Positions 2,974 through 33,953 of a stretch of DNA of 33,953 nt are shown one piece after another. Origin of the DNA: a virus. Taxonomy: Duplodnaviria; Heunggongvirae; Uroviricota; Caudoviricetes. The notes under the pieces are model-generated. The model searched no databases, was not told where the DNA came from, and saw only the letters and a list, made by a program, of their open reading frames with translations. The position numbers and the translations under genes were made by a program. Within the stretch, counting starts at the first letter, position 1. The number at the start of each line of letters is the position of its first letter. The stretch is from positions 1 through 33,953 of IMG/VR virus record IMGVR_UViG_2534682338_000010. One strand, written 5' to 3'.

Positions 2974-3010
2974 GCGGCCTAAATCGACGTATAACGAGCT
3001 AAAACAGTTA

Positions 3011-3036
3011 AGGGGTACATTCGTACCCCTTTTTTA
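3011..3036 (+). terminator. rho-independent terminator
   Basis: stem AGGGGTAC / GTACCCCT with loop ATTC, then TTTTTT. Confidence 0.65.
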
Positions 3037-3241
3037 ATTTAATTGCATTAGGCAGCGTAAGCAAGTTTCATAGTAGTTTCCTCTAAAATAATAAGTTCAC
3101 TACTATTTATCAGAGAAAATTGTCTTACTATTGCATTCTCTATCTGGATGTGGGTATAGGCGGGATTGAATACGGCAAAACTGAAACATTCCACTACTGC
3201 AATAAATCACTAAACAATATAAAGAATATTGCAAGTGTGGA

Positions 3242-15449: not shown

Positions 15450-15956
15450 TTAAGAGATTTTCAAAGTCTGCTTAGTGCCAGTCTTCTTAATGTTGGTAAG
15501 GAAAGCAGCCGGAGGATTGCTTAACCAGTAGTAATGAAAACCACTTTGCATACTGTTATAAGGAACAGTGACAGCAGCACCACCCAAATTAACGGTTATA
15601 TTCCCCGCTCTACCATTCTGGAGATATACAGCCATAGTAGGAGTACCACCATTGAATTGACCAACGATAACGCCAATCAGACGCCCTACGCCCACGTTTT
15701 CGGGGTTCTCCATAGATCCTTTACCGCGCATGTCAGTTACTGGATAGTTTGAAGCAGTTACACCCCAGTTATTACCCAATGAAGTAGACCACGCAGCAGT
15801 AGCTACAACCGTATCCATACCACGACCACACATCGCACTCATGTTAGCTGGGCGACTAACCTTTAATGCGTTCATTGCTGCGCTCATCCATCGTTGACCA
15901 GTTACAGAAACAGCAGATGACCCGACCCAGCCAGGCTTATTAACGACATTCGCCAT
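15450..15956 (-). CDS. tail-associated structural protein (Gly/Asn-rich)
   Basis: 168-aa ORF; GGAG SD 8 nt upstream; follows the terminator after the putative tube gene. Confidence 0.5.
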   Translation of the reverse strand: MANVVNKPGWVGSSAVSVTGQRWMSAAMNALKVSRPANMSAMCGRGMDTVVATAAWSTSLGNNWGVTASNYPVTDMRGKGSMENPENVGVGRLIGVIVGQFNGGTPTMAVYLQNGRAGNITVNLGGAAVTVPYNSMQSGFHYYWLSNPPAAFLTNIKKTGTKQTLKIS

Positions 15957-16124: not shown

Positions 16125-16601
16125 TCAAGCGGCAGTATTGAAGATTTGCTGTTTCAGCGGAGCACCATCAACGGCAAAGGTAAACTCTTTAGTTACCACT
16201 TCTTCATCGCCACCGTTCATAGCAACTTTAGAAATGAAGCCGTTGTACGCAATGCGAATACCAGTCTGTTTTCCGGCGTCAACATAATACTCTACTTTGA
16301 TCTGGCAGCGAGTGCCGTCTTCGGCAGCTTTTGCGAGCTTCTCGTGTACCGCATCACCTGGGATGTAGTTAACGGTCAGAGTCAGATCTTCAACGTTCAG
16401 TTTACCAACCAGCTTACGGTTATACTGAGAAGAATACGATTTGACTTCTACCGTCCCGCGAGACAGTGAATATTCAGGAAAACCAGCACACTCTTTAATT
16501 TCTTCGTATGCTTCATCAGCAAGATCGGTGTTAGTGGTATCAGCGTGATAGAACAGACTTACCAGACCACCAGTAAAAATATCTTTAAATTGTTGAGACA
16601 T
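16125..16601 (-). CDS. putative major tail tube protein
   Basis: 158 aa; size typical of siphovirus tube proteins; followed by a strong terminator; ends with TGA. Confidence 0.5.
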   Translation of the reverse strand: MSQQFKDIFTGGLVSLFYHADTTNTDLADEAYEEIKECAGFPEYSLSRGTVEVKSYSSQYNRKLVGKLNVEDLTLTVNYIPGDAVHEKLAKAAEDGTRCQIKVEYYVDAGKQTGIRIAYNGFISKVAMNGGDEEVVTKEFTFAVDGAPLKQQIFNTAA

Positions 16602-19600: not shown

Positions 19601-20194
19601 ATCTTTCTTATTATCCGCTACCGTCTTTTCTATTGCTGATTTATTTGCTTCGACAGTATTCGTTAAGTTGGTAACGTTGGTATTCGTCTGATCAACCCGC
19701 GCATTAATATCTGTCTTGTTCTTGTTAATTGTCGCGTTGATAGTATCGCGGGTTGAAGTAATAGTCTGATTCAGTTCAGTCTTAGCAGCCGCCAGAGCGT
19801 TAGCAGCTTCGGTTTTATTGTTACCTACTGTGGTAGTCAAAGCATCAATTCGTTTGTTGGCTGCGGTATCGCCAGCAGTGATTGAAGCATTGAGAGTATC
19901 ACGGGTAGAAGTGATAGTCTGATTCAGTTCAGCTTTAGCACTAGCCAGATTATTAGCGGCTTCTTGTTTGTTGGAAGCAATAACACGGTCAGTGCTAGTT
20001 TTGTTATTGTCTACTTTCGTATTCAGTTCAGCGTGTTTTTCTGGAGAAACACTAATTTGGACTACGTTATTATTTTTGTCTTTGGTGTAAATCACATGAT
20101 CCGCCAACTGTAAGGCGATTTCACCCTGTGATAATTGTTCCGGCGTTGGTTTTTTACCCGCCGTCTGTGTGCGTTTAAATTGGATCGACTGCAT
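16658..20194 (-). CDS. fibre protein with coiled-coil repeat shaft and C-terminal intramolecular chaperone (S74-like autoproteolytic) domain
   Basis: 1178 aa; N-terminal repeated NQTITSTRDT-type heptad units; C-terminal DSRLKINKEEL...VYTYDK...GIIAQDLEKVLPEAV typical of self-cleaving fibre chaperone domains. Confidence 0.75.
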   Translation of the reverse strand: MQSIQFKRTQTAGKKPTPEQLSQGEIALQLADHVIYTKDKNNNVVQISVSPEKHAELNTKVDNNKTSTDRVIASNKQEAANNLASAKAELNQTITSTRDTLNASITAGDTAANKRIDALTTTVGNNKTEAANALAAAKTELNQTITSTRDTINATINKNKTDINARVDQTNTNVTNLTNTVEANKSAIEKTVADNKKDADTKITNLTGTVNSNHTAINNKVDQNKSSTDAAIAAANQRIDSIEGSADAAYIKKNTNTYHHGYLLTKTANYLEDQTARDLNYFGAFRTNGQDGLMDLTLNVPHSAGKAHGRGFTFRYASGGSRVETYGFDREGQKNFSYKMYHEGDKPTPGEIGAYTKAEVDKMFVKNVVMSVPNSSENVSAYFKLATATIPQNGRSVFFRIHGGNGYNVTAYDQVDVVEILLRSGNDRPKGLNVIAYRRNTNKDFEVFAVNTSGDNYDIYVKYQRYTDNVIVEYGKSVYVSLTVYDTPEATLIKPSVGVIGGRNVTLFNTENKRGVLSFDDNTQNSYDIVHLSNDRGTGRKYIRKFRSNYNEMIWHETVQGSTYRLATGSTDAQEILSVESSSSIAGTHKGNILSGRMMLGGGSNVITLRRPAGQSNHIAFQDNRTGSITRQGWIGYGNADTNVFEWYSDVGGTSIRHHIDGQIELATGNTKRVYTNAQFISMNSDAYRMIYGNYGAFWRNDGGKVYLLSTAENDKLGGWNGNRPFIYDLTNGKVTLGGDGNEGALVLERDSRAARFSNNVFLEKGLLTFSAGGNQSMDSFTINHWGNSNANRYNVLQFQDTSGTHFTTERNGTGGLLAHFRGDLTTEGKLTWGKNTATSSFNIRAWGADARKQVFECADESGWHWYTQRPGGPGTELIEFAINGTVKPKAIHTGGNITLNGADIEFRRSGNKHLWFRDPNGLELGLLYCDDAGVMRMRGEKQTEVWKFGGKMIQLETGTVSGGGNGLIRGSVAGGSWTSWRDRASGIQVDCQQSTDSAHNVWKATHQGKYHIAAMGVHVPSGTIGNAMVRMHVHDATFDFNAAGDFTAGRNGSFNDVYIRSDSRLKINKEELQDGALEKVNSLKVYTYDKVKSLSDDTVIKREVGIIAQDLEKVLPEAVGIQSTEDPEHPEAIKTISNSAVNALIIKAMQEMTAKFDAMAKELAETKAELAELKATK

Positions 20195-20271
20195 CGAATC
20201 ACCTCACTATAAAACAGGAATAAGGGAGGCGTTAACCTCCCAACGTTCATGTTTTATTTAGGTAAGCAATC

Positions 20272-21105
20272 TTAATACTCACCGAAATCGATCCGGTCCG
20301 TCTTAGCCACTGCGCCAATTTCGCTAGGTGTCGGTTTCTCATTGGTGGAATATACCTTGATCCATTCAGAACGACCGTTTTCCTGAATATTTCGGACACG
20401 TAAACGCGGTGCGCCAGAAGTATTACAGGTTAATTGCCATGCGCCATGCTCATTAGCTTGAAGGTGAATTAACGATGTATCAGCACCATAAGGGTTAGTG
20501 CTAGCCGTTCCTTTGTAGGTTACGAAACGGTTTCCTGCTAATGCCTCGCTATCAATACCGCCCGTGAATGGATGTACACCTGCACCCAAACCAAAATCAC
20601 CCTGACGTAAGATCCGGCCTTCGGTAGCAATACCCCTTGCCAAAATCCCGCCATCTGGTTCAAGTTTAAATTCCAGTGTTACAGCTTTGTTATCACTACC
20701 ACGGGTTTTATGTGATGTGACGTAAGCATCGAATATACAAAAGTACCCTGTGTTAGCAGCACTATAGCCAGAGTTCACAACATAGAACATACGGAAGCGT
20801 AAAGGTGTTTTATCCTCTACCGCTTTCATCAACATTGCTTGATGTTCATCGTCAAGAACACGGTTTAACGTGAGTGTTGTCGGTTCCAGTCTACGATAAC
20901 CAGCAAGTTTCCCCGTAGCGTCCTGATCGTACTCTTCCAGAGTTTCAATCTCTGTGGATTCGGTTAGCGTAGGGAATGCTGCGATGTTCTCAATAGAACT
21001 AAAGCTAGGATCGAAAAAGTCGACCTGATTGTCTATCTGGTTAGAGATCGACACTTCAACATGCGACCCCGTGAAAATGTCTAAGTTATCTTGTGTAATA
21101 TTCAT
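20272..21105 (-). CDS. tail/neck structural protein (possible tube or fibre-anchoring protein)
   Basis: 277 aa; C-terminus shares the motif KPTPSEIGA with the 1178-aa fibre. Confidence 0.5.
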   Translation of the reverse strand: MNITQDNLDIFTGSHVEVSISNQIDNQVDFFDPSFSSIENIAAFPTLTESTEIETLEEYDQDATGKLAGYRRLEPTTLTLNRVLDDEHQAMLMKAVEDKTPLRFRMFYVVNSGYSAANTGYFCIFDAYVTSHKTRGSDNKAVTLEFKLEPDGGILARGIATEGRILRQGDFGLGAGVHPFTGGIDSEALAGNRFVTYKGTASTNPYGADTSLIHLQANEHGAWQLTCNTSGAPRLRVRNIQENGRSEWIKVYSTNEKPTPSEIGAVAKTDRIDFGEY

Positions 21106-21114
21106 TATTACCCC

Positions 21115-21537
21115 TTAAAAACGCGCTAGATAAGAAAATTTAAGGCTAAGTGTCCCAACGATACCACCATCACTAGAATCATCGTCATAATCGGTATTAG
21201 AAGCTACTGGAGTGATATCTGAAATTGAGAAGCCCAAATCTTTAAAACGTGGGTTATCCGGCTGAATCTGGATTATCTGGCAAATACCCTCATGAATTTT
21301 CGTTTCATGAATCTGAGAATATAACTGCATTTCGATAACGCATTCAGCTTGCATTGCATTACCGCCACGGACCCTAGTGTAAGTCTCATTCATTCCGGTG
21401 ATCCAACAAACCACGTCATCACTAAAGCCTTGCTGAGTTTGTTCTACGTTTAAAGCCAGACCTAAATCTTGTTCGATAATATCCTGCAAGGCGCGTTTGA
21501 TTTTCAGTCTAGGCATATTATTAACGGTAGCGAGCAT
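21115..21537 (-). CDS. head-tail joining / tail completion protein
   Basis: ATG at 21537 preceded by AGGGGG with 6-nt spacing; overlaps the upstream gene end by 17 nt. Confidence 0.45.
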   Translation of the reverse strand: MLATVNNMPRLKIKRALQDIIEQDLGLALNVEQTQQGFSDDVVCWITGMNETYTRVRGGNAMQAECVIEMQLYSQIHETKIHEGICQIIQIQPDNPRFKDLGFSISDITPVASNTDYDDDSSDGGIVGTLSLKFSYLARF

Positions 21538-21811
21538 GTGTACCCCCTGCCAGAGTGATAAAGCAATCAGTTGTATTGTCACCATTGCGCTTAACGTATT
21601 GAACTTTGAAACGCTGATTTTCTACAGTGACAATATCACCCTGCTTTAAGTCTCCCTCACGACAGAATAGAAATTCTGTTTCTGTCATTACCCCTTGTTC
21701 GTCGGTAGTAGTAATTTCATGATAAGCACGAATTGATTTACCACCTTCCACCGAAAATACAGGAGCACTTCGGAACATTCTTGATAATTGTGATTCTGAT
21801 AATTTGAACAT
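21521..21811 (-). CDS. head completion / head-tail adaptor protein
   Basis: 96 aa; AAGGGGG SD 5 nt upstream of the ATG; first gene after the capsid terminator. Confidence 0.45.
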   Translation of the reverse strand: MFKLSESQLSRMFRSAPVFSVEGGKSIRAYHEITTTDEQGVMTETEFLFCREGDLKQGDIVTVENQRFKVQYVKRNGDNTTDCFITLAGGTHARYR

Positions 21812-21841
21812 AGTTACCCCCTTTATGGAGTATTTACATAC

Positions 21842-21868
21842 AAAAAAGCCCCACCGTTAGGCAGGGCT
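21842..21868 (-). terminator. intrinsic terminator after the capsid gene
   Basis: minus-strand hairpin AGCCCUGCC-UAAC-GGUGGGGCU followed by UUUUUUG, starting 2 nt after the tandem stops. Confidence 0.65.
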
Positions 21869-21870
21869 AA

Positions 21871-22002
21871 TTATTATTCTTTAGTTTTACGTTGTTTTTT
21901 AACTGTGGCTTTCGCCGTAACCGTCTGAGATTCTTCTTCCTGAGATGGAATCAGATTTTCTTCCCCCAAATCGGGGGAAGGTTCAGATGGTTCTACGTTA
22001 GT
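21871..22002 (-). other. in-frame post-TGA extension of the capsid gene (42 codons then TAA-TAA)
   Basis: frame 0 after TGA (22003-22005) is open: TNVEPSEPSPDLGEENLIPSQEEESQTVTAKATVKKQRKTKE. Confidence 0.45.
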
Positions 22003-24006
22003 TCATTCAGCGGAGATGTGAAGAACTTTCAGAGCTTCCGGCTGAACTACGGTGAAGTCCAGGTCTACCCAGATACGCGGAACGATAGCAGACTGTGCGC
22101 GGTAAGTGGTGTCGTCCATATCCAGTTCCAGACCACCCCATTCACCGATCATGATACCGGAGAAATCACCCAGAACGATGTGGTCTGCCGGAATAACGCC
22201 AGAAGTAACTACATCGTAACCAGCCAGTTTGCCGTTTTCGATGATATAACCGGAAACGCCGTTATCTTTCAGGGTAGATTCCAGTTCAGCAGCAGTTGCA
22301 CCGCTCATTGCAAACTTGATGGACTGTGCCGGAACGCCAGCGTCGGTCAGTGCTGCAATTTCTTTCAGGAAGTCTTTGTAGCTAAAAGCGGCTTTCTTAG
22401 TAACGCGACCACCGTCTACCAGTTGCTTAACCAGACCTTTCGGACCTCGAGTATTATCTTTGTCAGACAGAATCAGTTGTTCCAGTTTGATGCGAACAGC
22501 TTTGTTAATATGATCAGTGATCAGGGTAGCAATATTCGGAACAGTTTTCAGAGACTGACGGCTGATCGGGTTGCCACCAGCAAACGTCTTAGGAGCCATT
22601 TTCACGTTTGCAAATTCAGCTTTGCTTTCCGGTGCAGCACCGTTTTCATCAACGAAACCGAAAGCATCAACGCTGGAAGTAGTCATTTTCGGTACAGCAA
22701 TCGGAGCATTCAGACCAGACAGAACAGTCACACCCAGACGACCCAGAACAGACTGCGGAAGCAGCATTTCTACATAGGATTCGGTCAGCAGTTTTTCGTC
22801 GGTTACAGCAGTCAGAGTAGCTTTGGTGTTACCATCAGCAGCAGCACGCAGAGCAGCAGCCGGAACGAATACAGAGCCACCGCGAGCAGCACGACCACGC
22901 TGCATTGCAGCACCAGCAGCCATTGCAGAAAACTCGGCTTCGTTAGCACCCAGAGCTTCACCATCTACCAGGGAGCGAATTACGTTGTTCAGGTCAAAAG
23001 TTTTTTCCATTTTAGAGTCCTTAATTTGTTCGTTATTACGTTGAGCAGTAGCGATTTTATTTAGTGTCTTAGTGCGGAATGCTTCCGGCGTCATGTCTTT
23101 AATTGCTAATGCGCGTTTCAATTCTTCGTCATCAATATTTAGTTCGCGTGCAATTTCGCGAATTTCTAATTCATCTTCTTCGGAACGTTCAGCCACTTCC
23201 TCGGTTTTTTCTTCTTCATCCGGAGCGGCTTCACGTTCTTCTTTTACTTCTTCTGCTTCCCGAACAGTTGAACTATCATCATCAACACTTTCAGGATGTT
23301 CAGCGTCTTTTCCGTCTTCGAGATTTTCATCTTCTTTATTCTCTTCAACTTGGCGCTCTTGAGTTTCTTCAACTTCCGGTTCTTTATTTTCTTCTACCGG
23401 AGTTTCTTCAACCTGAGCGGATTCTTGTTCTTCTTTGATTTCTTCGATTTGTTCTTTAGTCATATCGCGTTTAGCCTCCAAATTAACTGTGATAGTATTT
23501 AGAGAGCGATTTAAACCGACAGAATCATCGGCAGGGACCGTCACAAATGAAATTTCAAAAGGCGCCCACTTAGTAACAATCAATTGCCCTTTGGTGTAGT
23601 CGATGTGATATTCTTTAATGTCATAACCGACAGAAATTTTTTCCATCGTACCTTCAATGACTTTATTGCGAATATCATTAGCCAAAGTGCCATGCTTAGA
23701 GAATTTAACCAGAGCACGACCTACGTTATCCGCATCGATTCGAGCGTTACAAACGACACCAATATGATTATCGAAATTATGATTGAACAGCAACGGAGCG
23801 TTATTATTCAGACGGGACAGATCAACCGCTTCCGGTGTATGTACCAGAATTTCATCTAATACCACCATTTCTTGATTTTGCTCATCCCAGAATTGGCGCT
23901 GATAAGGCTGTTCACTGGAGAAAGCAATTTCAAATTCGTATTGATCGTTATGCCCTTCGTTAATAACTCCACCGTAACCGTTAAGATCGCGGCGAAATTT
24001 AAGCAT
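22003..24006 (-). CDS. prohead protease / acidic scaffold (delta-like) / HK97-fold major capsid protein fusion
   Basis: 667 aa: N-terminal about 170 aa protease-like (ends EISFVTVPAD), about 150 aa extremely Glu-rich linker, C-terminal about 330 aa capsid-like. Confidence 0.75.
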   Translation of the reverse strand: MLKFRRDLNGYGGVINEGHNDQYEFEIAFSSEQPYQRQFWDEQNQEMVVLDEILVHTPEAVDLSRLNNNAPLLFNHNFDNHIGVVCNARIDADNVGRALVKFSKHGTLANDIRNKVIEGTMEKISVGYDIKEYHIDYTKGQLIVTKWAPFEISFVTVPADDSVGLNRSLNTITVNLEAKRDMTKEQIEEIKEEQESAQVEETPVEENKEPEVEETQERQVEENKEDENLEDGKDAEHPESVDDDSSTVREAEEVKEEREAAPDEEEKTEEVAERSEEDELEIREIARELNIDDEELKRALAIKDMTPEAFRTKTLNKIATAQRNNEQIKDSKMEKTFDLNNVIRSLVDGEALGANEAEFSAMAAGAAMQRGRAARGGSVFVPAAALRAAADGNTKATLTAVTDEKLLTESYVEMLLPQSVLGRLGVTVLSGLNAPIAVPKMTTSSVDAFGFVDENGAAPESKAEFANVKMAPKTFAGGNPISRQSLKTVPNIATLITDHINKAVRIKLEQLILSDKDNTRGPKGLVKQLVDGGRVTKKAAFSYKDFLKEIAALTDAGVPAQSIKFAMSGATAAELESTLKDNGVSGYIIENGKLAGYDVVTSGVIPADHIVLGDFSGIMIGEWGGLELDMDDTTYRAQSAIVPRIWVDLDFTVVQPEALKVLHISAE

Positions 24007-24051
24007 TTAATCACCTTTAATTAATTGGGGGCATTGCGCCCCCGTTGGTTA

Positions 24052-25563
24052 TTAGGGATCGGCTGGGGAATTTTTTTCTTCACCCTCGCCATCAACGATA
24101 ATATTTAGTGCGCTCTTTTCGGCTTGAATCTCTGAGAATACTTTTTCAGGATCATCACCACGTTCAAGAATAACGGCAGTACGTGATTTAAGTCCTTTAT
24201 CAATTAAAGCAATATCAGCGTTTACGTCTTTAATAACATCGACAGACTCGAAACGCGGACGAATAATAGTTGTATTATCGATAATATGTGGAATTGCAGT
24301 AATACGAATCGGAACAATACCACGCGCGGAATAATGGCGTAGATATGCTTCAAAAATTGGCAATACCACTGTTTCAATTAATTTGTTTTGAAGTGCTTTA
24401 ACGCGGTTACGTTGAAGTAGTTCACCAAAACGTGCGGCTGAGTAGTTGATCTGTGAACAATCTCCCGTTAAGCCCTGTTTAAACACGCCTAAGCCCATTG
24501 ATACGCTAGTAAACATCGCATCATTGAAGCTGTTAAAGTCATCACCGCTTTGCGTCGCCTGGATGCTCTTGATCGTTGCCCCTTCCGGTAATTCCTGAAT
24601 AGTACCCGGTGCAAAATCCTGTACTACTTCCGGCGCTTGATATTGTTCATCCTCTTCACCAGTATCAAAATCGTCACCAGAATCTTTCGGACGTTCGATA
24701 AAGCCCATAGAGCTAGCTGCAATACGTTTCTGGACGATCGCAGTTTCGCGGAATGCGTCTTGATGTGCGATATCCTTAATCACTGGCAGGAAGTCAGTCA
24801 CACCACGCAGAGATTCAGCCGCAAGTGGTTGATAATAATGACATACTTGCGAAGCATCTACGCGATAGTTATCACCTGTGTAAGTCTGAGTCAGTAGGTT
24901 GATTTTACGAAACCAAAATGCAACAGGGCGCATTGTTTCTACGTCATACTCGATCCCCTGATAGATAGCGCGTTCTTTGCTTACTTCACGGTTTAGCGAC
25001 CAGTCGCACTTATCAGCAGACAGGATAGAAACATTTAACTCATTGTTTTCTTTGGTTAAAACGATGAAGCACTCACCACCCATAACGCGCTCACGTTCAG
25101 CCATTACCAGCAGTTCACGGAAGTTAAAGCGACCGTTACGAGAGAAGCGTTTAGCGTTCTGCGCCCACTTCCAGAAAGCATTCTCGATCTGCTTATTCAG
25201 TGCGCTATCAAGTTTGCCATTTGATTTAACGATTGATGGCTTCGGATCTAGGCCAGTACCTACCACCATATCGGTGATGTATTGCGTGTATCGACTGCCT
25301 ACGGAAGTGTTTAAGGCCAGAGTACGACCCTGATCATAAAGGCGCTTACCGTTCGATTTGAGAGCCTTATTGAAGGTTCCTGTAATGGTGTCTTGTTGAA
25401 GTGATCCATCAATGCGATCACCCACCAGACCTAAACTACGAGTCGCCAAAGATCTCTGGTATTTTTCTATAGATTTGTCGATGAAAATTTTTGGTTGTTG
25501 CTGGCGGTGATTAGTTTTAACTGGAGTTTCTACCGCCTTTTTGCGTCGAAAAAGATTAAACAT
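24052..25563 (-). CDS. portal protein
   Basis: 503 aa; position between terminase and capsid; composition and length typical of lambda-type portals. Confidence 0.75.
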   Translation of the reverse strand: MFNLFRRKKAVETPVKTNHRQQQPKIFIDKSIEKYQRSLATRSLGLVGDRIDGSLQQDTITGTFNKALKSNGKRLYDQGRTLALNTSVGSRYTQYITDMVVGTGLDPKPSIVKSNGKLDSALNKQIENAFWKWAQNAKRFSRNGRFNFRELLVMAERERVMGGECFIVLTKENNELNVSILSADKCDWSLNREVSKERAIYQGIEYDVETMRPVAFWFRKINLLTQTYTGDNYRVDASQVCHYYQPLAAESLRGVTDFLPVIKDIAHQDAFRETAIVQKRIAASSMGFIERPKDSGDDFDTGEEDEQYQAPEVVQDFAPGTIQELPEGATIKSIQATQSGDDFNSFNDAMFTSVSMGLGVFKQGLTGDCSQINYSAARFGELLQRNRVKALQNKLIETVVLPIFEAYLRHYSARGIVPIRITAIPHIIDNTTIIRPRFESVDVIKDVNADIALIDKGLKSRTAVILERGDDPEKVFSEIQAEKSALNIIVDGEGEEKNSPADP

Positions 25564-25573
25564 GATTTACCCC

Positions 25574-26071
25574 TTATCGCGTAAGACGTAATTTGATATT
25601 TTTAATCGGGCTAATTCCCTGTTTACGTCGTTCGGCTTGAATTAATTTTGATAACTGACGTTCATAATCAGTCTTCAATTGCTGGAGAACACCCAATGAC
25701 TCGTACACAAATGTAGTATTTTTGATACTCATCTGAGACAAAGCCGCCTCGTCATTCGCTAATCGAGCAAATATAACCTGCTCAATTAAAGCAATGGTCT
25801 CTCTTAGGTATTCTTTTTTTGTTTGACGTTGAAAAATAGGTAAAACTGTCAGTTCCTGCATTGATACCAGTTCTTCATCAAGAGTAATAACAATGGTCAT
25901 CTTCCCTTCTGGAAAGTCTAACGTTTTAATCTCGTGATTAGCCGGAGTATCATCAACCTGATAAATGATACCTTTATTATTATTTCCTACCTGAATTGTT
26001 ACACCCTCTTCATTCGCCAGCGTGATTTTTTCGCCTTTACGAATTACTAAGGGAATTAGTTCTAAACTCAT
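25574..26071 (-). CDS. hypothetical head-morphogenesis protein (between terminase and portal)
   Basis: 165-aa ORF in the position occupied by W-like proteins in lambda-type head modules. Confidence 0.45.
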   Translation of the reverse strand: MSLELIPLVIRKGEKITLANEEGVTIQVGNNNKGIIYQVDDTPANHEIKTLDFPEGKMTIVITLDEELVSMQELTVLPIFQRQTKKEYLRETIALIEQVIFARLANDEAALSQMSIKNTTFVYESLGVLQQLKTDYERQLSKLIQAERRKQGISPIKNIKLRLTR

Positions 26072-26143
26072 AATTACCCCTTATTTAATTGTTATTGGAT
26101 TAACAATATTTAGGAGTAAGCCGCCCCGAAGGACGGCGAGTTA

Positions 26144-28048
26144 TTAGAACGATGTTACCCAGCTACGGCCTCTATTTGGGCGTCTGGCGATGTTTTTACG
26201 TTGTGGTCGTGTGATTGGCTTATTTTCTTCGATTTGCTCGTCAGATTGCGATTTAGGAGCTTCTACGGGTTCTTCTGGTTCACGGTTCAAACTATCTTTG
26301 ATGGCTTCGAGTTTTTCCCATGACATTTTATTGAGTACATGGCGAGAAGCAGCATAGGAATAAGCCAGGCAGTCGAGAGCCTCGTTTCGTTGCTGACCAA
26401 CTTTTACCCAACGTGTGGTATTACCCTGCCGTTTCAACTGTTCAGAAAGCAATTGCTCGCAATAGTCATCAGGAACGTCACCAATCTGGAAGACAGTGTG
26501 AGGATCGCCATCTCTCAAGTTCCGGTTAATCATTTCACGGATCATCGTTTTAAGGTTGTTTACGCCCAGAATTTTAAGGGTAAAACCACCCGTTCTTGTG
26601 TCTTTTACCGGAAGGATTGGTGCATCAACATTGCTTGCGCCTTTAATGGCGGTTAGATTTTGCCACCGACTACAGAATCGGTAGATCACTTGCGTAGCTC
26701 GTCCGTTCGATGAGTCCACGAAAGCAGATAGCATCGGGATTCGTTCACCGGATCGGGTATAGAATTTCGCTTTCAGGAAGTTATAAAGCTGGTCATATGC
26801 TGGTGATTCGTGGCGTTCGCAGTTCACATCATAGAATGATCGGTGATCAACTACGCATAGACCTTTACGAGAAATACCCAGCAAGGTAGATTCCAGACGG
26901 TCTTTTTGCTGGTCAACTCCACCTACCAGAGCCAGTACATCATCAGGAATATTGTCTAGGCTAATATCAGTTTTCAGCGTTTCCAGTTCGTCGGCTGTGC
27001 GGTCTTCGTTAAGATCATCGAAGGTTTCACCGAGGACTGTATTGTAGAACGTTGCCAGGGACATATTCGCGTAGCTATCAGCAAAGTCCACCACACACGC
27101 ACGGATAGAACTAAACGGAGACATAAGGCGGTTAGCATGAAAACCGATTACTTCCGCATTTGGTTCGGTGGCGACCCATTCTCCCTTAGCAACAGCACGT
27201 AGGCGATCCCCTTCGGTCCAGTCGGTTTCACATTCAGGACAACGATAAACGGCTGTATCTGGGTTGGGTAATGATTTACCGTTAATCGTATGCCAATCGA
27301 AATGTACGTTACTCCATTCCATTACGTGCTTGTGTCCGCAATGCTGGCAAACGACATGATATTTTCTCTTATCCGAGAGTTCCCATTGTTGGTTAATCGC
27401 CCCATCACGAGCGGTTGGAGTGGAAGCAATTACGATCCTTGCATCTTCCCCGAAAGTGGTTGCGCGTTGTTCCGCTAGCTGGATCGGGTTCCCTTCGTCT
27501 GACTCATCAGCCGCATCAACTTCATCAAGAATAATCAAAGGGAGTGTTTTACCGCGAAGATGTGACGGACTATTCAACGACATGAAATACATAAACGATC
27601 CGTTACGAAGCTGAATAATCGATGAGTTGTTAACGGCATTGCGATCTGATTTGTCGGTGATCATCGCCTTTAATTCTGGCGTTGCCTCTAATACTGGCTT
27701 CACCTTACCAGCGATCCAAGAATTTAGTTCCCTAACGTTACTTTGCAACACCCCGATATTAGTAGGGTTACTCGCGATCCGATGGAAGATAATTCCGTTA
27801 AGAATCATGGTCTTACCCAACTGTGCCGAACATTTAAACACAATTTTTCTACGGTCTTCGGTGATCGCGTCCATCATTCCACGTTGGAAGGGATGCAATT
27901 TAATTAGAGATCCGGCTTTAACACCATCGGTAGCAACTACGTTAGCCTCTACCCACTCGCTAGGTTTCATTGCTTTAGGTGGGCGAATTGCAGCAGAGAT
28001 ATTTCTGAGAATCTTTTTTAATTTTGCCTTATTAGAAATCAGTTTCAT
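26144..28048 (-). CDS. terminase large subunit, lambda GpA-type
   Basis: 634 aa; Walker A KCSAQLGKT; acidic ILDEVDAADESDEG (Walker B-like); Cys/His cluster CQHCGHKH...CPECE as in GpA-family terminases. Confidence 0.85.
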   Translation of the reverse strand: MKLISNKAKLKKILRNISAAIRPPKAMKPSEWVEANVVATDGVKAGSLIKLHPFQRGMMDAITEDRRKIVFKCSAQLGKTMILNGIIFHRIASNPTNIGVLQSNVRELNSWIAGKVKPVLEATPELKAMITDKSDRNAVNNSSIIQLRNGSFMYFMSLNSPSHLRGKTLPLIILDEVDAADESDEGNPIQLAEQRATTFGEDARIVIASTPTARDGAINQQWELSDKRKYHVVCQHCGHKHVMEWSNVHFDWHTINGKSLPNPDTAVYRCPECETDWTEGDRLRAVAKGEWVATEPNAEVIGFHANRLMSPFSSIRACVVDFADSYANMSLATFYNTVLGETFDDLNEDRTADELETLKTDISLDNIPDDVLALVGGVDQQKDRLESTLLGISRKGLCVVDHRSFYDVNCERHESPAYDQLYNFLKAKFYTRSGERIPMLSAFVDSSNGRATQVIYRFCSRWQNLTAIKGASNVDAPILPVKDTRTGGFTLKILGVNNLKTMIREMINRNLRDGDPHTVFQIGDVPDDYCEQLLSEQLKRQGNTTRWVKVGQQRNEALDCLAYSYAASRHVLNKMSWEKLEAIKDSLNREPEEPVEAPKSQSDEQIEENKPITRPQRKNIARRPNRGRSWVTSF

Positions 28049-28091
28049 GTAATTACCCTCATTACGAAATATGAAGGTATTTATTAAATTG

Positions 28092-28119
28092 TTGATATTT
28101 TGATAAATACGGGTATTAA
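28092..28119 (+). promoter_or_regulatory. sigma70-like promoter for the 28136 gene
   Basis: TTGATA (28092-28097), 16-nt spacer, TATTAA (28114-28119); AAGGGGG SD before the ATG. Confidence 0.45.
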
Positions 28120-28135
28120 GATTTAAGGGGGTTGT

Positions 28136-28741
28136 ATGCTAATTAATCAGCAACAAAGAGATGAATTAAAATTAGCCTTTTCTTGTTGTACCGATCATGA
28201 ATATCGTTTGCCAGTAAAACATAAGCACTTAAAGACTGATTACACAACATCCGGGTTTAGCCGTGAGGAAGCGAAAGAGATTTTAATAGAATTTTACCGT
28301 GATAATGGTTATACAGACGTTCACAACTTCTTTAAGAAACATAGAACATCACATACAGAGTTTCGGAGAGTCCGAGATTGGTTTGATTTTGATATCAAGC
28401 GTTATTATCGCATTGATGACGGTCCTATCTATCGGTTGCAGTGGAAGCCGATCCGAGAAGTGTTGAAACAGACAAGGGATAGTATGGCTGTCACAATGCC
28501 ACGTAACATAGCTTTTAAGAAAGGATATGGTGATACAAGGGAACTATTCGTTGAACTCGCTAACGTGAAGTACAGCCACTATTACAACGATCCTAAGTCC
28601 TTCTTTGAAGTGCTTCGCAAGGTTGATATTAGTCGGGGTACATATTATTCACGGTTGAAGAAGTACGGGATTAAGGCAGAGTTCTTTATGTCGGTTGACG
28701 ATGGAGAACTTTTTCCGATAAAATGTAAGTCCTCTAAATAA
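28136..28741 (+). CDS. hypothetical protein with C-terminal small DNA-binding (HTH-like) domain
   Basis: 201 aa; C-terminal segment ISRGTYYSRLKKYGIKAEF resembles the two small paralogs at 28777 and 32146. Confidence 0.6.
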   Translation: MLINQQQRDELKLAFSCCTDHEYRLPVKHKHLKTDYTTSGFSREEAKEILIEFYRDNGYTDVHNFFKKHRTSHTEFRRVRDWFDFDIKRYYRIDDGPIYRLQWKPIREVLKQTRDSMAVTMPRNIAFKKGYGDTRELFVELANVKYSHYYNDPKSFFEVLRKVDISRGTYYSRLKKYGIKAEFFMSVDDGELFPIKCKSSK

Positions 28742-28776
28742 AGGTGAACATTCACTTTAATTTGGAGAAAATGACT

Positions 28777-29004
28777 ATGACTACTAAAGCTACTCGCGGT
28801 CGTCCTGCCCGTTTTAACGCTGAACAGATGGCTGATATTGCCTACGCTTATTATACAGCGGATCGTGGTAAGGAAGCGAAAGAACAGATTCTTAGTGAAC
28901 ATGGGATTTCAATTGCCCAATTCTATAAGAATATGAAGAAGTTAGACATTAAATTCTATGTTCAGATCGGTGATGGTCAGATCGTAGAAGCAACAGGTTT
29001 TTGA
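28777..29004 (+). CDS. small DNA-binding protein (GRP/AT-hook-like N-terminus plus HTH-like core)
   Basis: MTTKATRGRPARFNAEQMADIAYAYY...; GGAG 9 nt upstream of this ATG; track ORF begins at an upstream GTG (28744). Confidence 0.55.
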   Translation: MTTKATRGRPARFNAEQMADIAYAYYTADRGKEAKEQILSEHGISIAQFYKNMKKLDIKFYVQIGDGQIVEATGF

Positions 29005-29019
29005 GTTTTGATTCTCTTT

Positions 29020-29044
29020 GCCACTCTTCGGAGTGGCTTTTTTG
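29020..29044 (+). terminator. rho-independent terminator
   Basis: stem GCCACTC / GAGTGGC with loop TTCG, followed by TTTTTTG. Confidence 0.7.
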
Positions 29045-29151
29045 TATCTGTAGGGTGTCCAAAACGCCATCGGCGGGTTGGTGGAAGATGGCGCGAAAAG
29101 TCGCGTGATGTAGGTATGAAAAAGCCACGCACTAGGCGAGGCTAAAAATTA

Positions 29152-29967
29152 TTACAGTCCGAAGACTTCCAGTGATCCAACATTCTGACGGAGACGTTCA
29201 GCCGCTTTATTTTGAATCAGAATAGTGTTATTTGGCTGCGGTAGTTTAAGAGTTGCTTTCTGTTCTTCTTCCAAAACGCCCAATTCAACCAGCACCGGAA
29301 GCACATCAACAGTAAACTCAAGTTGGTAGTGAGCATTCATGCGGCAGAAAGACAGAGAAGAGTCATTAGCAACATACCCACACGGCTTGTTATTTTCATC
29401 ATAGACGCGCTCAATGTATCCAGCAGTACGCAAGGCCGTCAGTGCTTCTTTAACCTTCGTAGCGCCCTTTTTAGCGCCTAACAGACGCGTCATTGAATGG
29501 CTATCTACAGACTTACGAACATGAAGTTCAATCAGCTTTTTGTTTTCGCGAGTTTTCTTTAATGCCAGTTCGATCCAGTCTGTTTCTTCAAAGTCTGCAT
29601 ACGGGTTAACAGCTAAACGTTCCTGACGCAGTTTTTCATTTTCTTCTTTCAGTCGTTTCCATTCCTGAATAACAACCATTCGACGCTTAACATCGTAACC
29701 AGTAACAAGAGTCAGCGTAAGTTCTTCGTCAAGGTGATATTCGGTTTGTTCACGTCCATATTGGTCAAAAAAGATGCGTCCAAATTTGGACTCATCTAAT
29801 TCAAGAGAAGTAAGCATAGTTTTAATATCACGTTTAACATGCTTATGTTCTTTTCCGGTAAATTCAGCGATCTGACGGGAAGACATGGTCAGCGGTTTGG
29901 TGTTATCAACAACCAGAGACACGGAAGCAGTTTTAACAGCAGTATTCATAGTAGTAACAGTATTCAT
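29152..29967 (-). CDS. Rha-family phage regulatory protein
   Basis: N-terminal LTMSSRQIAEFTGKEHKHVKRDIKTM matches the conserved Rha motif; likely start at the first ATG of an 18-bp tandem duplication. Confidence 0.7.
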   Translation of the reverse strand: MNTVTTMNTAVKTASVSLVVDNTKPLTMSSRQIAEFTGKEHKHVKRDIKTMLTSLELDESKFGRIFFDQYGREQTEYHLDEELTLTLVTGYDVKRRMVVIQEWKRLKEENEKLRQERLAVNPYADFEETDWIELALKKTRENKKLIELHVRKSVDSHSMTRLLGAKKGATKVKEALTALRTAGYIERVYDENNKPCGYVANDSSLSFCRMNAHYQLEFTVDVLPVLVELGVLEEEQKATLKLPQPNNTILIQNKAAERLRQNVGSLEVFGL

Positions 29968-29976
29968 AGTAGTAAT
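29941..29976. repeat. perfect-but-one 18-bp tandem duplication at the start of the Rha gene
   Basis: AGTATTCATAGTAGTAAC followed by AGTATTCATAGTAGTAAT; encodes MNTVTT-MNT on the minus strand. Confidence 0.8.
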
Positions 29977-30063
29977 TCCCCTTAAACGGTTTTGCGATAA
30001 TGATATTGGTCCTCCTAGTTCCGGCATCACCACCGGAACAATTTTATTTATAATAGAAATTTA

Positions 30064-30396
30064 TCACCAATCGATTTCTACTTGGTCTTCTTCATAATAA
30101 GGAATCGCATATTCATAACGCCAGTTTTCGATGATTTCACGTTCTTCATTAGTAAGAAGGTGATTGTTAACTGGAGTCGCATTGTGATTACCAGCTTCGA
30201 ATTGCTCGCGAACTTCCAGCATTGCATGAATACCAGTTAAGGACATCAGATCAAACGGAACATGCATACTACGGGAGATAGTTTCACGGGATACGCCCCA
30301 ATCATTTTCTACATGGCTAGGGGTTACAGAAACGGTTTTGCCGGAGATTTTAACAGTCCAGTCATACAGGGATTTAGTGATGGTAAATTCTTTCAT
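30064..30396 (-). CDS. hypothetical protein
   Basis: 110 aa; AGAGGA SD; driven by a near-consensus promoter just upstream. Confidence 0.6.
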   Translation of the reverse strand: MKEFTITKSLYDWTVKISGKTVSVTPSHVENDWGVSRETISRSMHVPFDLMSLTGIHAMLEVREQFEAGNHNATPVNNHLLTNEEREIIENWRYEYAIPYYEEDQVEIDW

Positions 30397-30452
30397 GTTA
30401 CATCCTCTTTACAAATCTAGGTCAAATAGGTTCAAAGTTGTCAAGTGCGATA

Positions 30453-30481
30453 ATCATAAAAAAGTTTGAAGATATTGTCAA
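30453..30481 (-). promoter_or_regulatory. near-consensus sigma70 promoter (minus strand)
   Basis: minus-strand TTGACA (30481-30476), 17-nt spacer, TATGAT (30458-30453); a second TTGACA lies at 30444-30439. Confidence 0.55.
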
Positions 30482-30517
30482 ATACCCCTTGACAGGACGC
30501 CAAAGGGTTGACCTAAC

Positions 30518-30985
30518 TTACAGCATATCTAAGCCTTCATCGTAACCGTAGAAGCCATTCTGAGAAGAGAAACAGATTGGAGCGTAGTCGTCGTCATCTT
30601 CGTCTTGTTCATCGCGTTCTGGTGCTTTCTGAGCGGTTTCTTTGCCGTAGTTAAACATTGCTTCATCCAGTTCATAGACAGTAACGAAGCTACCTAAATC
30701 AATGTCATAATCACGGACTTCGAAAGGCAGGTCATCACGAACAATGATTGCTGGAATGTTCTGGTATTTCAGGCGGTCTTCATCGGTGAAGCAGTTAACA
30801 ACAATGGTCGGCTTCTTATTACGGCAAAACGCATAACATGCACTAGAGAAATGGGATTCATCGGAATTGAAAAGGATGTTATAACCACGTTCACGGAACA
30901 TCTTCATTAACTTGTCATTGTGGAAGCTATCAGCATCAAAACCTAACAGGATGAAAGGAGTAGTGGTAGTCATTTTATGGTTCAT
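30518..30985 (-). CDS. hypothetical early protein with strongly acidic C-terminal region
   Basis: 155 aa; AGAGGA SD 8 nt upstream; C-terminal ERDEQDEDDDDY. Confidence 0.6.
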   Translation of the reverse strand: MNHKMTTTTPFILLGFDADSFHNDKLMKMFRERGYNILFNSDESHFSSACYAFCRNKKPTIVVNCFTDEDRLKYQNIPAIIVRDDLPFEVRDYDIDLGSFVTVYELDEAMFNYGKETAQKAPERDEQDEDDDDYAPICFSSQNGFYGYDEGLDML

Positions 30986-31388
30986 AGTGGAAATCCTCTA
31001 AAAGAAAGTGAATCAAAGTAATTCTGATATTATTTATAAGAGAAAATTCTTGATGATTTTGGAAGGGATTGTTACTCACTTCGTTCGTTTACTAGAATCA
31101 GTTATCATCTGGTATTAAATCCCTTTCTAAGAAAATCCTTTCAAAAGTGATTCTCGATGCCACGCAGTGGCGTCGCAGACGTTTGGGAGTGAGCGAAGCG
31201 AGCGAGCAAACTAGTTAATTCCTTCTAAGATCATCTAGTTTAAATTAGTGTTACTAGAAGTAATTGGTTAGCGCTTCGCGCAGTCGGGCTACGCCCTCCT
31301 AATATCTTTTTGGTTATTTGTTGTTTTTGGTTTTACACATGAGCGTAGCGAATGTGTTATATAATATCTATGCACGCCCGATTCCCCG

Positions 31389-31630
31389 TTTTGCCCCTCA
31401 CTAAGTTAATGTTTTATAAAGAGTTTTTCTCACAAATCCTTTTCGGGGGCAAATTTCAGGGGCAAAAATTAGATTTTCAGGGGCAATTATTGGCATTTCA
31501 GGGGCAAAAATGAGGGGCAAAATCACTGTTTCCCAGAATTTCAGGGGCAAAAATAGTAGGTTTCAGGGGCAAAAATGGGATGTGGAATCTAGGGGATTTT
31601 GGTTCAGGGGCAAAATTCGGGGGCAATTTT
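31389..31630 (+). repeat. iteron-like array: 9 direct copies and 1 inverted copy of GGGGCAA(A/T)
   Basis: direct copies starting at 31445, 31459, 31480, 31501, 31514, 31544, 31566, 31607, 31619; inverted copy at 31389-31397; several have the extended form TTTCAGGGGCAAAAAT. Confidence 0.8.
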
Positions 31631-31667
31631 CATAGTGTAGGGCTAGTGTAGGTTTGAAAATCCTTTG

Positions 31668-31696
31668 TTGACACTGTGTAGGATCGGTGGTATACT
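31668..31696 (+). promoter_or_regulatory. near-consensus sigma70 promoter P1
   Basis: TTGACA (31668-31673), 17-nt spacer, TATACT (31691-31696). Confidence 0.55.
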
Positions 31697-31724
31697 TGAA
31701 AATTCGAGATAAATATTTTATAAT
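31696..31724 (+). promoter_or_regulatory. near-consensus sigma70 promoter P2 (tandem with P1)
   Basis: TTGAAA (31696-31701), 17-nt spacer, TATAAT (31719-31724). Confidence 0.55.
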
Positions 31725-32145
31725 ATTTGTATTGAAAGTGAAAATTTACCGATTTTCCTTCCTATTGTTATCACCGTGTTAAATTGTTATATGTCTGTGA
31801 AGATTTGGATCTGAGAGAAAATCTTGTAACAAATCTTTACAATTCATAGCTCAATTAATGCTCACCGCTTTAGCAAAAAGTGCTATGCCTTTTTCTAAAT
31901 TGATTGAATATACATCAATTTGGTTAAATCGTGTTCTTCGCTTTAGCAATTCGTGCTGTGGTTTAACACATTTAACACGTCTGATAACATCTGAATAACA
32001 TTTTAACATATCTCTGTTATAAATACATATATAAGAGATAAATGTGAGGGGTTGAAAAATAAAATACAATCCCCATATAAATAATAGTGAGCGGTTAACG
32101 CTCTTTTTTAAGAAATCATTAATCCACATTGTAGGAGGATTCGAG

Positions 32146-32328
32146 ATGGCACGACCTGTTAAGTTCACTCGCGAAATCATCTTAGAAATGGCTAAACGCT
32201 ACTTTGAGTTAACGCCGGGTGTGAGAATTGAAGAGTGGTTTAAAAATGAGGGCATCGATAAATCAACCTTTCATAAACTGCTAAAACGATATGACATTAA
32301 AGTGAAGATTGAAGCTACCGTTTGGTAA
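32146..32328 (+). CDS. small DNA-binding protein (paralog of the 28777 gene)
   Basis: 60 aa MARPVKFTREIILEMAKRYFELTPGV...; AGGAGGA SD 6 nt upstream. Confidence 0.65.
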   Translation: MARPVKFTREIILEMAKRYFELTPGVRIEEWFKNEGIDKSTFHKLLKRYDIKVKIEATVW

Positions 32329-32442
32329 TCAACTTTGACTGAGAATTATATGATGGCTTTAAAAAAGAAAAAGCCTCCCTTGTTGCAGCAAAGGAGGCTT
32401 GAAATGAACAATTAAAACTAACTTTCCACAGGAGTATTTATA

Positions 32443-33384
32443 ATGTTATTTTCCGCTAACTTTTTCACTAACGAAGTAACCAACGCTAAAGCAGTTATCA
32501 AATTTGGCACCGAAGCAAACAAGAAGATTCAGCCGAAAGTTGTTGCTCATGTTTCCTTTGCGCAGCAGAAATCCGCCTTCGCTGGCTTTAAAGCACATCG
32601 TGAAGCACTGATCGCGGCTGGCTTTGGTGTTGACGGTAAACTGCCTAACGGCATTCGTAAAGCAATCGACCGCGTTAAACCTGCTAAAGACGTTGCAGTA
32701 GACCACATCGTTACTTTTACCGTTAAGAACTCTTCTGAACTGTTCCACCTGGTTATTGCTGGTGATACTGCTATCGTTTCCGCTCCTAACATGGATTTTC
32801 AGGATACCGCTGATTGCCAGATCACCTTCGGTCGTCGTAAAGAAGTTACCGGAAAAGCTAAACTGAACTTCACTAAATCTGGCAATCCTTACTTTGCTGT
32901 TTTCTTTAACAGCCACGCTACCGAAAAAGAAGTTGTAGAACTGGTTGCTTATGAAGGTGAAGAGAAAGAACGTATTGAATCTTGCGAAGCATTTCTGGAA
33001 CTGGAAGCACAGGTGAATGCTGTTTCTCCGGTTGTTGAAGATCGCTTTGCTGCACTGGAAGCACAGATCGCAGAACTGAAAGCTGCACTGGAAGAAAAAG
33101 ACCAGATTATCGAAGCACAGAAAGCTGAGATTGAAGAACTGAAAGCTAAAGAAGTTGCTCCGGTAGCAGTAGTTGAAAACGCGGCTGATGAGGCCGCAAA
33201 TGATGAAGTAGAAGTGAAAATCGATGTGATGCGTGATCCGATGGCTGCACTGCAATTACTTCGTTCTTTTAAGGGCAAATCTCATTTTTCTAGTGATGTA
33301 GAAGATGAGGAAGAAGAACAGAAACGCAATGCTGCAATGCTTCATGATGAAATGTACGGTACTAACTTTTCTTACTGCCAATAA
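32443..33384 (+). CDS. abundant early-type protein with central coiled coil and acidic C-terminal region
   Basis: 313 aa; codon usage strongly skewed to high-expression codons (CTG, GAA, AAA, CGT, GGT); coiled-coil segment LEAQIAELKAALEEKDQIIEAQKAEIEELKAKE. Confidence 0.7.
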   Translation: MLFSANFFTNEVTNAKAVIKFGTEANKKIQPKVVAHVSFAQQKSAFAGFKAHREALIAAGFGVDGKLPNGIRKAIDRVKPAKDVAVDHIVTFTVKNSSELFHLVIAGDTAIVSAPNMDFQDTADCQITFGRRKEVTGKAKLNFTKSGNPYFAVFFNSHATEKEVVELVAYEGEEKERIESCEAFLELEAQVNAVSPVVEDRFAALEAQIAELKAALEEKDQIIEAQKAEIEELKAKEVAPVAVVENAADEAANDEVEVKIDVMRDPMAALQLLRSFKGKSHFSSDVEDEEEEQKRNAAMLHDEMYGTNFSYCQ

Positions 33385-33668
33385 AAAAAGGGACTCCGAA
33401 GAGTCCCTAGTAAGTTTAGGTTAGGTTTGCGCAACAAAGATGAGGTTATAATGAACATAATGCTACATTATTCTTTAAAGCCAGAAAAATAACCGCCCCC
33501 GAAGGGGCGGGAGGATTAATACTCAATCTATACTTGTTATGTTTTTATGTTGTATAGTCACTGACTATGAAAACACTGTACTGAATGTGTTTTATGGCTT
33601 TTAATCGGGAACTCTCTTTCGAAAGCCCCCTGTTAAAACCACATAAGGAGAAATGGCAGATTACAATA

Positions 33669-33953
33669 TTATTTAGTCTGTTTGAAAACAAACGTTAAAA
33701 ATTCGATTAAGCAATATACCCAGAATACCGTCAGTAGTAAATGCATAGCAATAGTTGGATGGAAGTTAAAAAGTGTCATACTAACTAGGCCAACAATATA
33801 AGAAATCCCTTCGACAATTAACGCAAGGCTAGCAAATGCAACAAACGCACCCAAGAATAATTCGCCTCGTTCTTTCGGTTCGGTTCCGAGTTTATAAGCA
33901 GAGATAGCAGCCAGAATAGTAATGATGACAGCATAGGTAATAAAAGTAGCCAT
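33669..33953 (-). CDS. small integral membrane protein (about 3 TM helices); start codon at the window edge
   Basis: 94 aa, hydrophobic throughout; ATG coincides with the last 3 bases of the window. Confidence 0.5.
   Translation of the reverse strand: MATFITYAVIITILAAISAYKLGTEPKERGELFLGAFVAFASLALIVEGISYIVGLVSMTLFNFHPTIAMHLLLTVFWVYCLIEFLTFVFKQTK

Follow-up and report, generated by a model that had tools for sequence, protein, structure and literature searches.

Separated genes for a putative lambda-type terminase in an Escherichia coli prophage

Introduction

In bacteriophage lambda, as in phages 21 and N15, the terminase locus has the order cos-Nu1-A. The small-subunit gene Nu1 (191-736) is located directly after cos and overlaps the large-subunit gene A (711-2636), whose product combines the ATPase and nuclease domains of the GpA type. 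Nu1 contacts the N-terminus of gpA through its own C-terminus, and the Nu1 binding sites are found immediately upstream of the Nu1 gene itself. The adjacency of the small-subunit gene and cos to the large-subunit gene is, however, only the typical arrangement and not a defining property of the GpA protein family.

Another layout is found in the late region of phage P2. The large-subunit gene P heads a leftward operon (P-Q) that starts from a short control region (2994-3166) with a central activator-binding site, and the divergent operon O-N-M-L starts from the same region. The small-subunit gene M belongs to the divergent operon and lies 2.2 kb away, and cos is not adjacent to the terminase genes. 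A third case is the record of Escherichia phage DCP80 (PQ671644), the sole sequenced phage record with close relatives of both terminase subunits described below. Its two terminase genes are non-adjacent (1734-3716 and 25760-26251).

Here we describe a terminase locus in viral DNA of 33,953 nucleotides (IMG/VR record IMGVR_UViG_2534682338_000010), which was analyzed at its whole length and is referred to as the window. A preliminary description of this DNA had noted a large terminase gene that heads its operon without an adjacent small-subunit gene. The data presented below indicate that it is mostly the position of the window's edge that makes the small subunit seem missing, and that the locus has an unusual gene order of a lambda-type terminase and not a new packaging mechanism.

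Results

The window comprises nearly the whole of an E. coli prophage of about 35 kb. In the complete E. coli genome NZ_CP178634.1 the prophage measures about 34.8 kb and splits ycdX into two halves; near its left end is a gene for a large serine recombinase (1279-2973). The window runs from the first prophage gene to the start codon of the second-to-last gene, so that one gene at the right end is cut off. The prophage junctions (L019 7440-7530; L018 29640-29700) have a short GGGAT core in common, located between inverted CCCACAATAACAC / GGTGTTATTGGGGG arms. In other strains the prophage adjoins hicAB, which represents a second integration site. A literature search on prophages in ycdX yielded nothing relevant and returned an unrelated Salmonella paper only.

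The 634-aa ORF on the minus strand at 26144-28048 is, judging by its sequence, a GpA-type large terminase (TerL). Residues 50-291 match Pfam GpA_ATPase (PF05876; 7e-62, 209.7 bits against a cut-off of 25.6), residues 301-571 match Pfam GpA_nuclease (PF20454; 2e-46, 159.2 bits against a cut-off of 22.5), and the protein matches PHROG 15 'terminase large subunit' at 4e-145. It is 43% identical to the DCP80 TerL and 27-29% identical to those of other phages among the matches listed; a megablast search of the locus against sequenced phages gave no match. The ATG codon occupies 28046-28048 and is preceded, at a distance of 7 nt, by a GAGGG ribosome-binding site. The possibility that a small-subunit domain is fused to TerL was ruled out: the GpA ATPase domain begins already at residue 50, and a fusion is also countered by the size of the protein, 634 aa as against the approximately 641 aa derived from lambda A.

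TerL is the first gene of a leftward head-tail operon, and the gene order 3′ of it is lambda-like. The second gene on the minus strand (25574-26071) encodes a gpW-like head-tail joining protein of 165 aa, residues 48-160 of which match PHROG 5774 (2e-8), and the third (24052-25563) encodes a lambda-family portal (Pfam Phage_portal_2, 2e-62). These are followed by a protease-capsid fusion of 667 aa (22003-24006), in which a Peptidase_S78 prohead protease, an acidic linker and an HK97-type major capsid domain are joined in one ORF, and by tail genes that extend to about 4773. In the tail module (ORFs at 15450-15956, 16125-16601, 16658-20194 and 20272-21105) two ORFs match one and the same tail-tube family, PHROG 158; the module is otherwise siphovirus-like. 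It also contains an ORF that RefSeq names a T4 Gp38-like adhesin, and in a relative a long fibre protein has T4 Gp34-like and Peptidase_S74 domains.

The TerL gene is mosaic. A second allele (L013 6001-7905) is 59% identical overall to the window TerL, while its first 16 and last approximately 43 residues are identical to those of the window protein and the flanking DNA is nearly identical. The N-terminal 16 residues, MKLISNKAKLKKILRN, are basic and constant even in this allele.

Directly upstream of TerL, where lambda has Nu1 and cos, neither was found. The upstream neighbour is a divergent gene on the plus strand, a 201-aa ORF that begins at 28136 behind an AAGGGGG ribosome-binding site, so the gap between the two genes is exactly 28049-28135, or 87 bp. 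This confirmed that TerL heads its operon without an adjacent small-subunit gene, as had been stated in the preliminary description. Both ribosome-binding sites lie inside the 87 bp. The region has a mean column identity of 97% among 10 relatives, including loci with TerL only 59-60% identical, and it is 89% conserved in an alignment that takes in the Salmonella relative. It contains an inverted repeat, GTATTTAT-N18-ATAAATAC (28077-28110), with 12-nt arms complementary at 11 of 12 positions. The dyad is centred at 28093.5, about 45 bp from each start codon, and the 8-nt cores of both arms are unchanged in all aligned relatives. This is the sole perfect match to the pattern in the window; one more site was found with 3 mismatches, as against 0.27 expected by chance. 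The dyad is a candidate operator or activator site.

The 87 bp had been described earlier as a divergent promoter region. The length and the divergent genes proved correct; the promoter is a presumed one. A consensus scan detected no sigma-70 site inside the 87 bp, and a relaxed scan of the region produced only matches of 8-9 out of 12, none of them convincing, the better ones being so near the start codons that the transcript would be leaderless. Such weak matches would fit overlapping, factor-dependent promoters, as at P2 pP/pO, and we presume that gene control is compactly organised here, by weak promoters that overlap. Inspection by eye found no P2-type TGT-N12-ACA site around the sole TGT of the 87 bp, and no Ogr-like gene was identified. 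Read-through from the Rha operon was considered as a possible source of the TerL transcript but found no support; a terminator-like hairpin, noticed by eye and absent from the list of the terminator scan, is present 3′ of Rha.

None of the ORFs in the window matches a small-terminase family. The last of them, on the minus strand at 33669-33953, encodes an otherwise uncharacterised protein of 94 aa. The source contig GL871841.1 (GCA_000190855.1; L055) encodes the exact TerL protein and is 100% identical to positions 18144-33953 of the window (15,810 bp). In this contig a gene for a 184-aa protein (1445-1999) is found 96 bp past the right edge of the window, the same 96 bp separating it from the start codon of the 94-aa ORF. 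Its position is equivalent to 34050-34604 of the window, on the minus strand, that is, the strand of TerL. Among the contigs listed that encode an identical 94-aa protein, the 184-aa gene adjoins in five out of five. As it is located beyond the right edge, this gene could not be seen when the window was first described. A GC-rich hairpin with a T-run is present just beyond window-equivalent 33953, between the 184-aa gene and the 94-aa ORF (L018 28683-28701), which suggests that the former may be a transcription unit of its own.

The sequence of the 184-aa protein identifies it as a small terminase subunit of the lambda Nu1 type. Its residues 1-168 match PHROG 57 'terminase small subunit' (E 2.8e-15). 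When the profile of its family was compared with lambda Nu1 using hhalign, a probability of 94.9% (E 4.8e-8) was obtained over 87 columns, residues 4-90 being aligned with Nu1 2-108; the homology extends over the winged-HTH domain and the next helix. BLASTP of the protein against lambda Nu1 gave E 4e-5 over the WQExGMP helix and paired the recognition helix LTEISRLYGYTINAAKKWQERGMP with QLADIFGASIRTIQNWQEQGMP of Nu1. Weaker matches were obtained between the family profile and the small-terminase chains 6hn7_B and 1j9i_A (68 residues; E 0.082), in the range of E 0.025-0.08. The score against Pfam Phage_Nu1 was 15.4 bits, under the 30-bit cut-off, and this model matches 13 of the 19 family members, all under the cut-off, with a best E of 8.6e-5. 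A few homologues are named 'terminase small subunit' by NCBI. In RefSeq the gene is a 'hypothetical protein' in all E. coli records among the matches listed, and it can now be named.

Its genomic context agrees with this identification. ORFs found with the small-subunit profile are located directly upstream of, or overlap, a GpA gene in 17 distant bacterial loci, which is the canonical position of a small subunit. In every relative examined the small subunit and the GpA TerL are encoded in the same element and on the same strand. The length of the protein is also well kept, at 171-187 aa in 62 out of 70 near-full-length homologues. The earlier suggestion that the small subunit must be encoded elsewhere was therefore right; the alternative offered with it, replacement by one of the divergently encoded DNA-binding proteins, found no support, as described below.

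The stop codon of the small-subunit gene and the start codon of TerL are separated by about 6 kb and roughly nine genes. Counting from the small-subunit gene, the block between them contains the 94-aa ORF, genes for proteins of 313 and 60 aa on the other strand, a non-coding region of 1.1 kb, genes for proteins of 155 aa, 110 aa and Rha, and then the 75-aa and 201-aa genes on the other strand. These would be early or regulatory genes in alternating orientation.

The split order is kept in the Salmonella relative and in divergent E. coli variants, in which the 201-aa protein is only about 52% identical, and it is also found at the second integration site near hicAB. Both terminase genes are present on several IMG/VR contigs. 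Among 5426 complete E. coli genomes the small-subunit segment was detected in 63 and the large-subunit segment in 55; in those genomes that appear in both listings the coordinates place the two segments a few kb apart. In an Atlantibacter relative, with a TerL that is 51% identical, the small subunit is 4.8 kb upstream. Since distant GpA loci keep the terminase genes adjacent, the split is a derived trait of the enterobacterial lineage. A literature search on non-adjacent terminase genes returned nothing useful. In Atlantibacter subterraneus the spot of the window's divergent HTH genes is occupied by a 151-aa ORF (L057 9351-9806), directly upstream of TerL, with Cys/His motifs and an HNH-type look by eye.

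The small-subunit gene is preceded by approximately 270 bp of conserved non-coding DNA, in which a GC-rich GTCGC-TAC-GCGAC dyad and TTTCC-rich repeats are found. One TerL allele occurs with two versions of this dyad, so the dyad may not be the nicking site. Comparison of allele L047 (6005-6906) with L018, L045 and L055 revealed that the N-terminal DNA-binding domain of the small subunit and the DNA just upstream of the gene are both divergent, whereas the C-terminal half is nearly identical to that of the other alleles. Across alleles, the C-terminal half and the acidic tail of the small subunit are nearly constant. The attP core was located by eye, in one prophage (L018/L019), about 370 bp upstream of the small-subunit gene. 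We also looked for physical genome ends in separately assembled contigs of about 35 kb; their ends coincide with the att site or with breakpoints between alleles, and none with a cos site.

The 201-aa gene (28136-28741, plus strand) and the 75-aa gene (28777-29004, plus strand, with 28777 chosen as the start codon) form a short rightward operon, which ends at an intrinsic terminator at 29020-29037 on the plus strand (GCCACTCTTCGGAGTGGC then TTTTTTGTAT). The 201-aa protein consists of two tandem modules, each with a tri-helical HTH and a beta-hairpin, and belongs to an orphan family. The 75-aa protein has one copy of the module and an N-terminal RGRP arm. A third paralogue of 60 aa is encoded at 32146-32328 on the plus strand, upstream of the 313-aa gene; it has a shorter ARP arm in place of RGRP and matches Pfam HTH_Tnp_1 weakly (0.003). 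The three paralogous genes thus carry four copies in total of one module of approximately 60 residues. Predicted structures give three helices and a beta-hairpin for each module, and the models of the 201-aa and 75-aa proteins contain such modules only, with no long helical or barrel oligomerisation domain. The fold resembles tri-helical HTH domains with an N-terminal arm, such as the C-terminal domain of Hin and resolvases, the HTH of IS3-type transposases, Myb and CENP-B.

An exhaustive profile search of 1.84 billion representative proteins detected 12 members of the 201-aa family. As the search retrieved only the family's own members, it provided no functional lead. The homologues are restricted to E. 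coli, Salmonella and Proteus. No small-terminase family in Pfam, PHROGs, NCBIfam or the PDB sequences was matched by the 201-aa and 75-aa proteins, and hhalign of their family against the Nu1-like family gave a probability of 0.2%. It was these results, together with the lack of an oligomerisation domain in the models, that went against the proposed replacement of the small subunit by a divergently encoded protein. The 201-aa and 75-aa proteins are probably DNA-binding regulators and not small terminases.

The 1.1-kb non-coding region contains an array of about ten iterons, copies of TTCAGGGGCAAAA, at 31441-31628, with an inverted copy at 31390-31398. The spacings are 13, 21 or 22, 30 and 41 bp. 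The array is kept in most relatives, including Salmonella; in some relatives there is a single copy of the motif. The array probably serves as a replication origin or as a set of operators. An ORF-less stretch of 407 nt (31704-32110), with a terminator at 32089-32103, is led into by two strong promoters of the sigma-70 type (31668-31696 and 31696-31724), each matching at 11 of 12 positions. As RNA this stretch folds at z = -7.3 relative to shuffles and has no Rfam match. A structured RNA was considered for 31704-32110, but the pairs have no supporting co-variation. The pairing is due to two conserved sets of clustered TGTTA/TAACA repeats, some 200 nt from each other, and this points to sites in the DNA; such binding sites are no less likely here than a structured RNA.

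Discussion

Overall, we consider that the locus is best explained as a lambda-type Nu1 and GpA terminase, the two genes of which have been pulled apart, and we give this explanation as a whole a probability of roughly 80%. What the two genes are, where they lie and that their split is conserved come directly from the comparisons above; the further steps we infer. TerL, as first gene of the leftward head-tail operon, would be expressed from a short upstream region of its own, and the two subunits would assemble in trans. By analogy with lambda, the contact between them would probably involve the conserved acidic C-terminal portion of the small subunit and, in TerL, the 16 conserved basic residues at the N-terminus. 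The winged-HTH domain at the N-terminus of the small subunit would recognise the approximately 270 bp upstream of its own gene, as happens in lambda at cosB. The 87-bp region would combine weak, factor-dependent promoters with the dyad at its centre in a compact control region, and the 201-aa and 75-aa HTH proteins would be regulators and not terminase subunits. As the window cut largely accounts for the missing small subunit, no new packaging mechanism is needed.

The locus resembles that of lambda in the GpA ATPase and nuclease domains of the large subunit, in the homology of the small subunit to Nu1 and in the order of terminase, W-like gene and portal. Unlike lambda, where Nu1 and A overlap, it has the two genes some 6 kb and about nine genes apart; TerL has an 87-bp upstream region of its own, which it shares with the divergent operon, and a separate terminator-like hairpin comes after the small-subunit gene. 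The resemblance to P2 concerns the organisation of the late genes: there too a terminase-containing leftward operon departs from a short divergent control region, and the conserved dyad centred between the two start codons might correspond to the central activator-binding site. The small subunit of P2, however, belongs to the divergent operon, whereas in the prophage the products of that operon are two HTH proteins, and the small-subunit gene is found farther upstream on the TerL strand. The existence in E. coli, Salmonella and Atlantibacter of a prophage clade in which the Nu1 and GpA genes are split by a regulatory block of 5-6 kb is unusual for lambda-type terminases, and automated detection of cos sites and small subunits could be led astray by the split.

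The best candidate for the cos site is the conserved stretch of approximately 270 bp upstream of the small-subunit gene and not the 87-bp region. If the small subunit binds its own upstream DNA, cos would be located there, about 6.5 kb from the 87 bp. The pattern seen in allele L047 resembles that expected of a cosB/Nu1 specificity pair, such as distinguishes lambda from phage 21, but the co-variation could also reflect plain linkage within one recombination block. The preliminary description had weighed against its own reading a conventional small-subunit gene elsewhere in the genome together with a distant cos site; such a gene was found, while the distant site is what we infer from the upstream DNA.

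The packaging site could instead be the iteron array at 31441-31628, between the terminase genes, with the Nu1-like protein still acting as the small subunit. Small subunits bind repeated sites; such sites would be offered by the direct repeats, which are densely packed in the 1.1-kb non-coding region and kept in most relatives, Salmonella among them. Nevertheless, ten iterons followed by AT-rich DNA and strong promoters have more the look of a replication origin or of an array of operators, and some relatives that share the small subunit contain the iteron only once. In lambda the Nu1 sites are immediately upstream of Nu1, and it is the DNA upstream of the small-subunit gene that is conserved in this lineage and varies together with the allele of the DNA-binding domain. 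We therefore regard the iterons as an unlikely packaging site.

As a genuine small subunit is present, the best interpretation of the 201-aa and 75-aa proteins is that they are regulators; they belong to an uncharacterised HTH family that can be tested as late-gene regulators. A more specific role, in which they are dedicated factors that couple late transcription to packaging, is improbable when taken jointly with the related reading that cos lies about 100-250 bp from attP. As an example of such coupling, they could bind DNA at a second site as accessory partners of the split terminase and not be ordinary regulators. If cos were that close to attP, the prophage map would be nearly collinear with virion DNA.

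It is very improbable that the 201-aa or the 75-aa protein is the DNA-recognition partner of TerL, replacing or supplementing the Nu1-like protein, with the packaging site in the 87 bp or nearby. The constant position of the HTH genes next to TerL, across the ultra-conserved 87 bp, could be explained in this way; the proteins, with their RGRP arm and HTH, are predicted to bind DNA, and 201 aa falls within the size range of small terminases. However, the same element encodes a genuine small subunit of the Nu1 type, and neither the small-terminase families searched nor the Nu1-like family showed similarity to the HTH proteins. Their models consist of independent HTH modules, two in the 201-aa protein, and lack an oligomerisation helix or barrel. 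The third paralogue at 32146 is situated beside another promoter region, which fits a family of regulators, and the 201-aa protein diverges to approximately 50% identity while the 87-bp DNA hardly changes.

That the split is a non-functional accident in a decaying, rearranged prophage, as might be suggested by the absence of a family assignment for most genes right of TerL and by the lack of a nameable repressor or replication initiator, is hardly credible given that the order is kept in dozens of E. coli genomes, Salmonella and Atlantibacter and at two integration sites, that the length of the small subunit is maintained in 62 of 70 homologues, that the structural genes appear intact and that the alleles are mosaic like those of actively recombining phages.

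The DCP80 record shares with the prophage a separated pair of terminase genes, its Nu1-like ORF being 33% identical to the small subunit described here. It differs in that the gene resembling a small subunit comes after the endolysin, where the structural block ends, and in that two small ORFs on the same strand precede TerL. The record (L001, L052) is 141 kb long, is filed under T4-like viruses and carries motA, while its first 26 kb or so contain the GpA terminase near the start, the endolysin and, as the last gene, the Nu1-like one. It may be a chimeric assembly.
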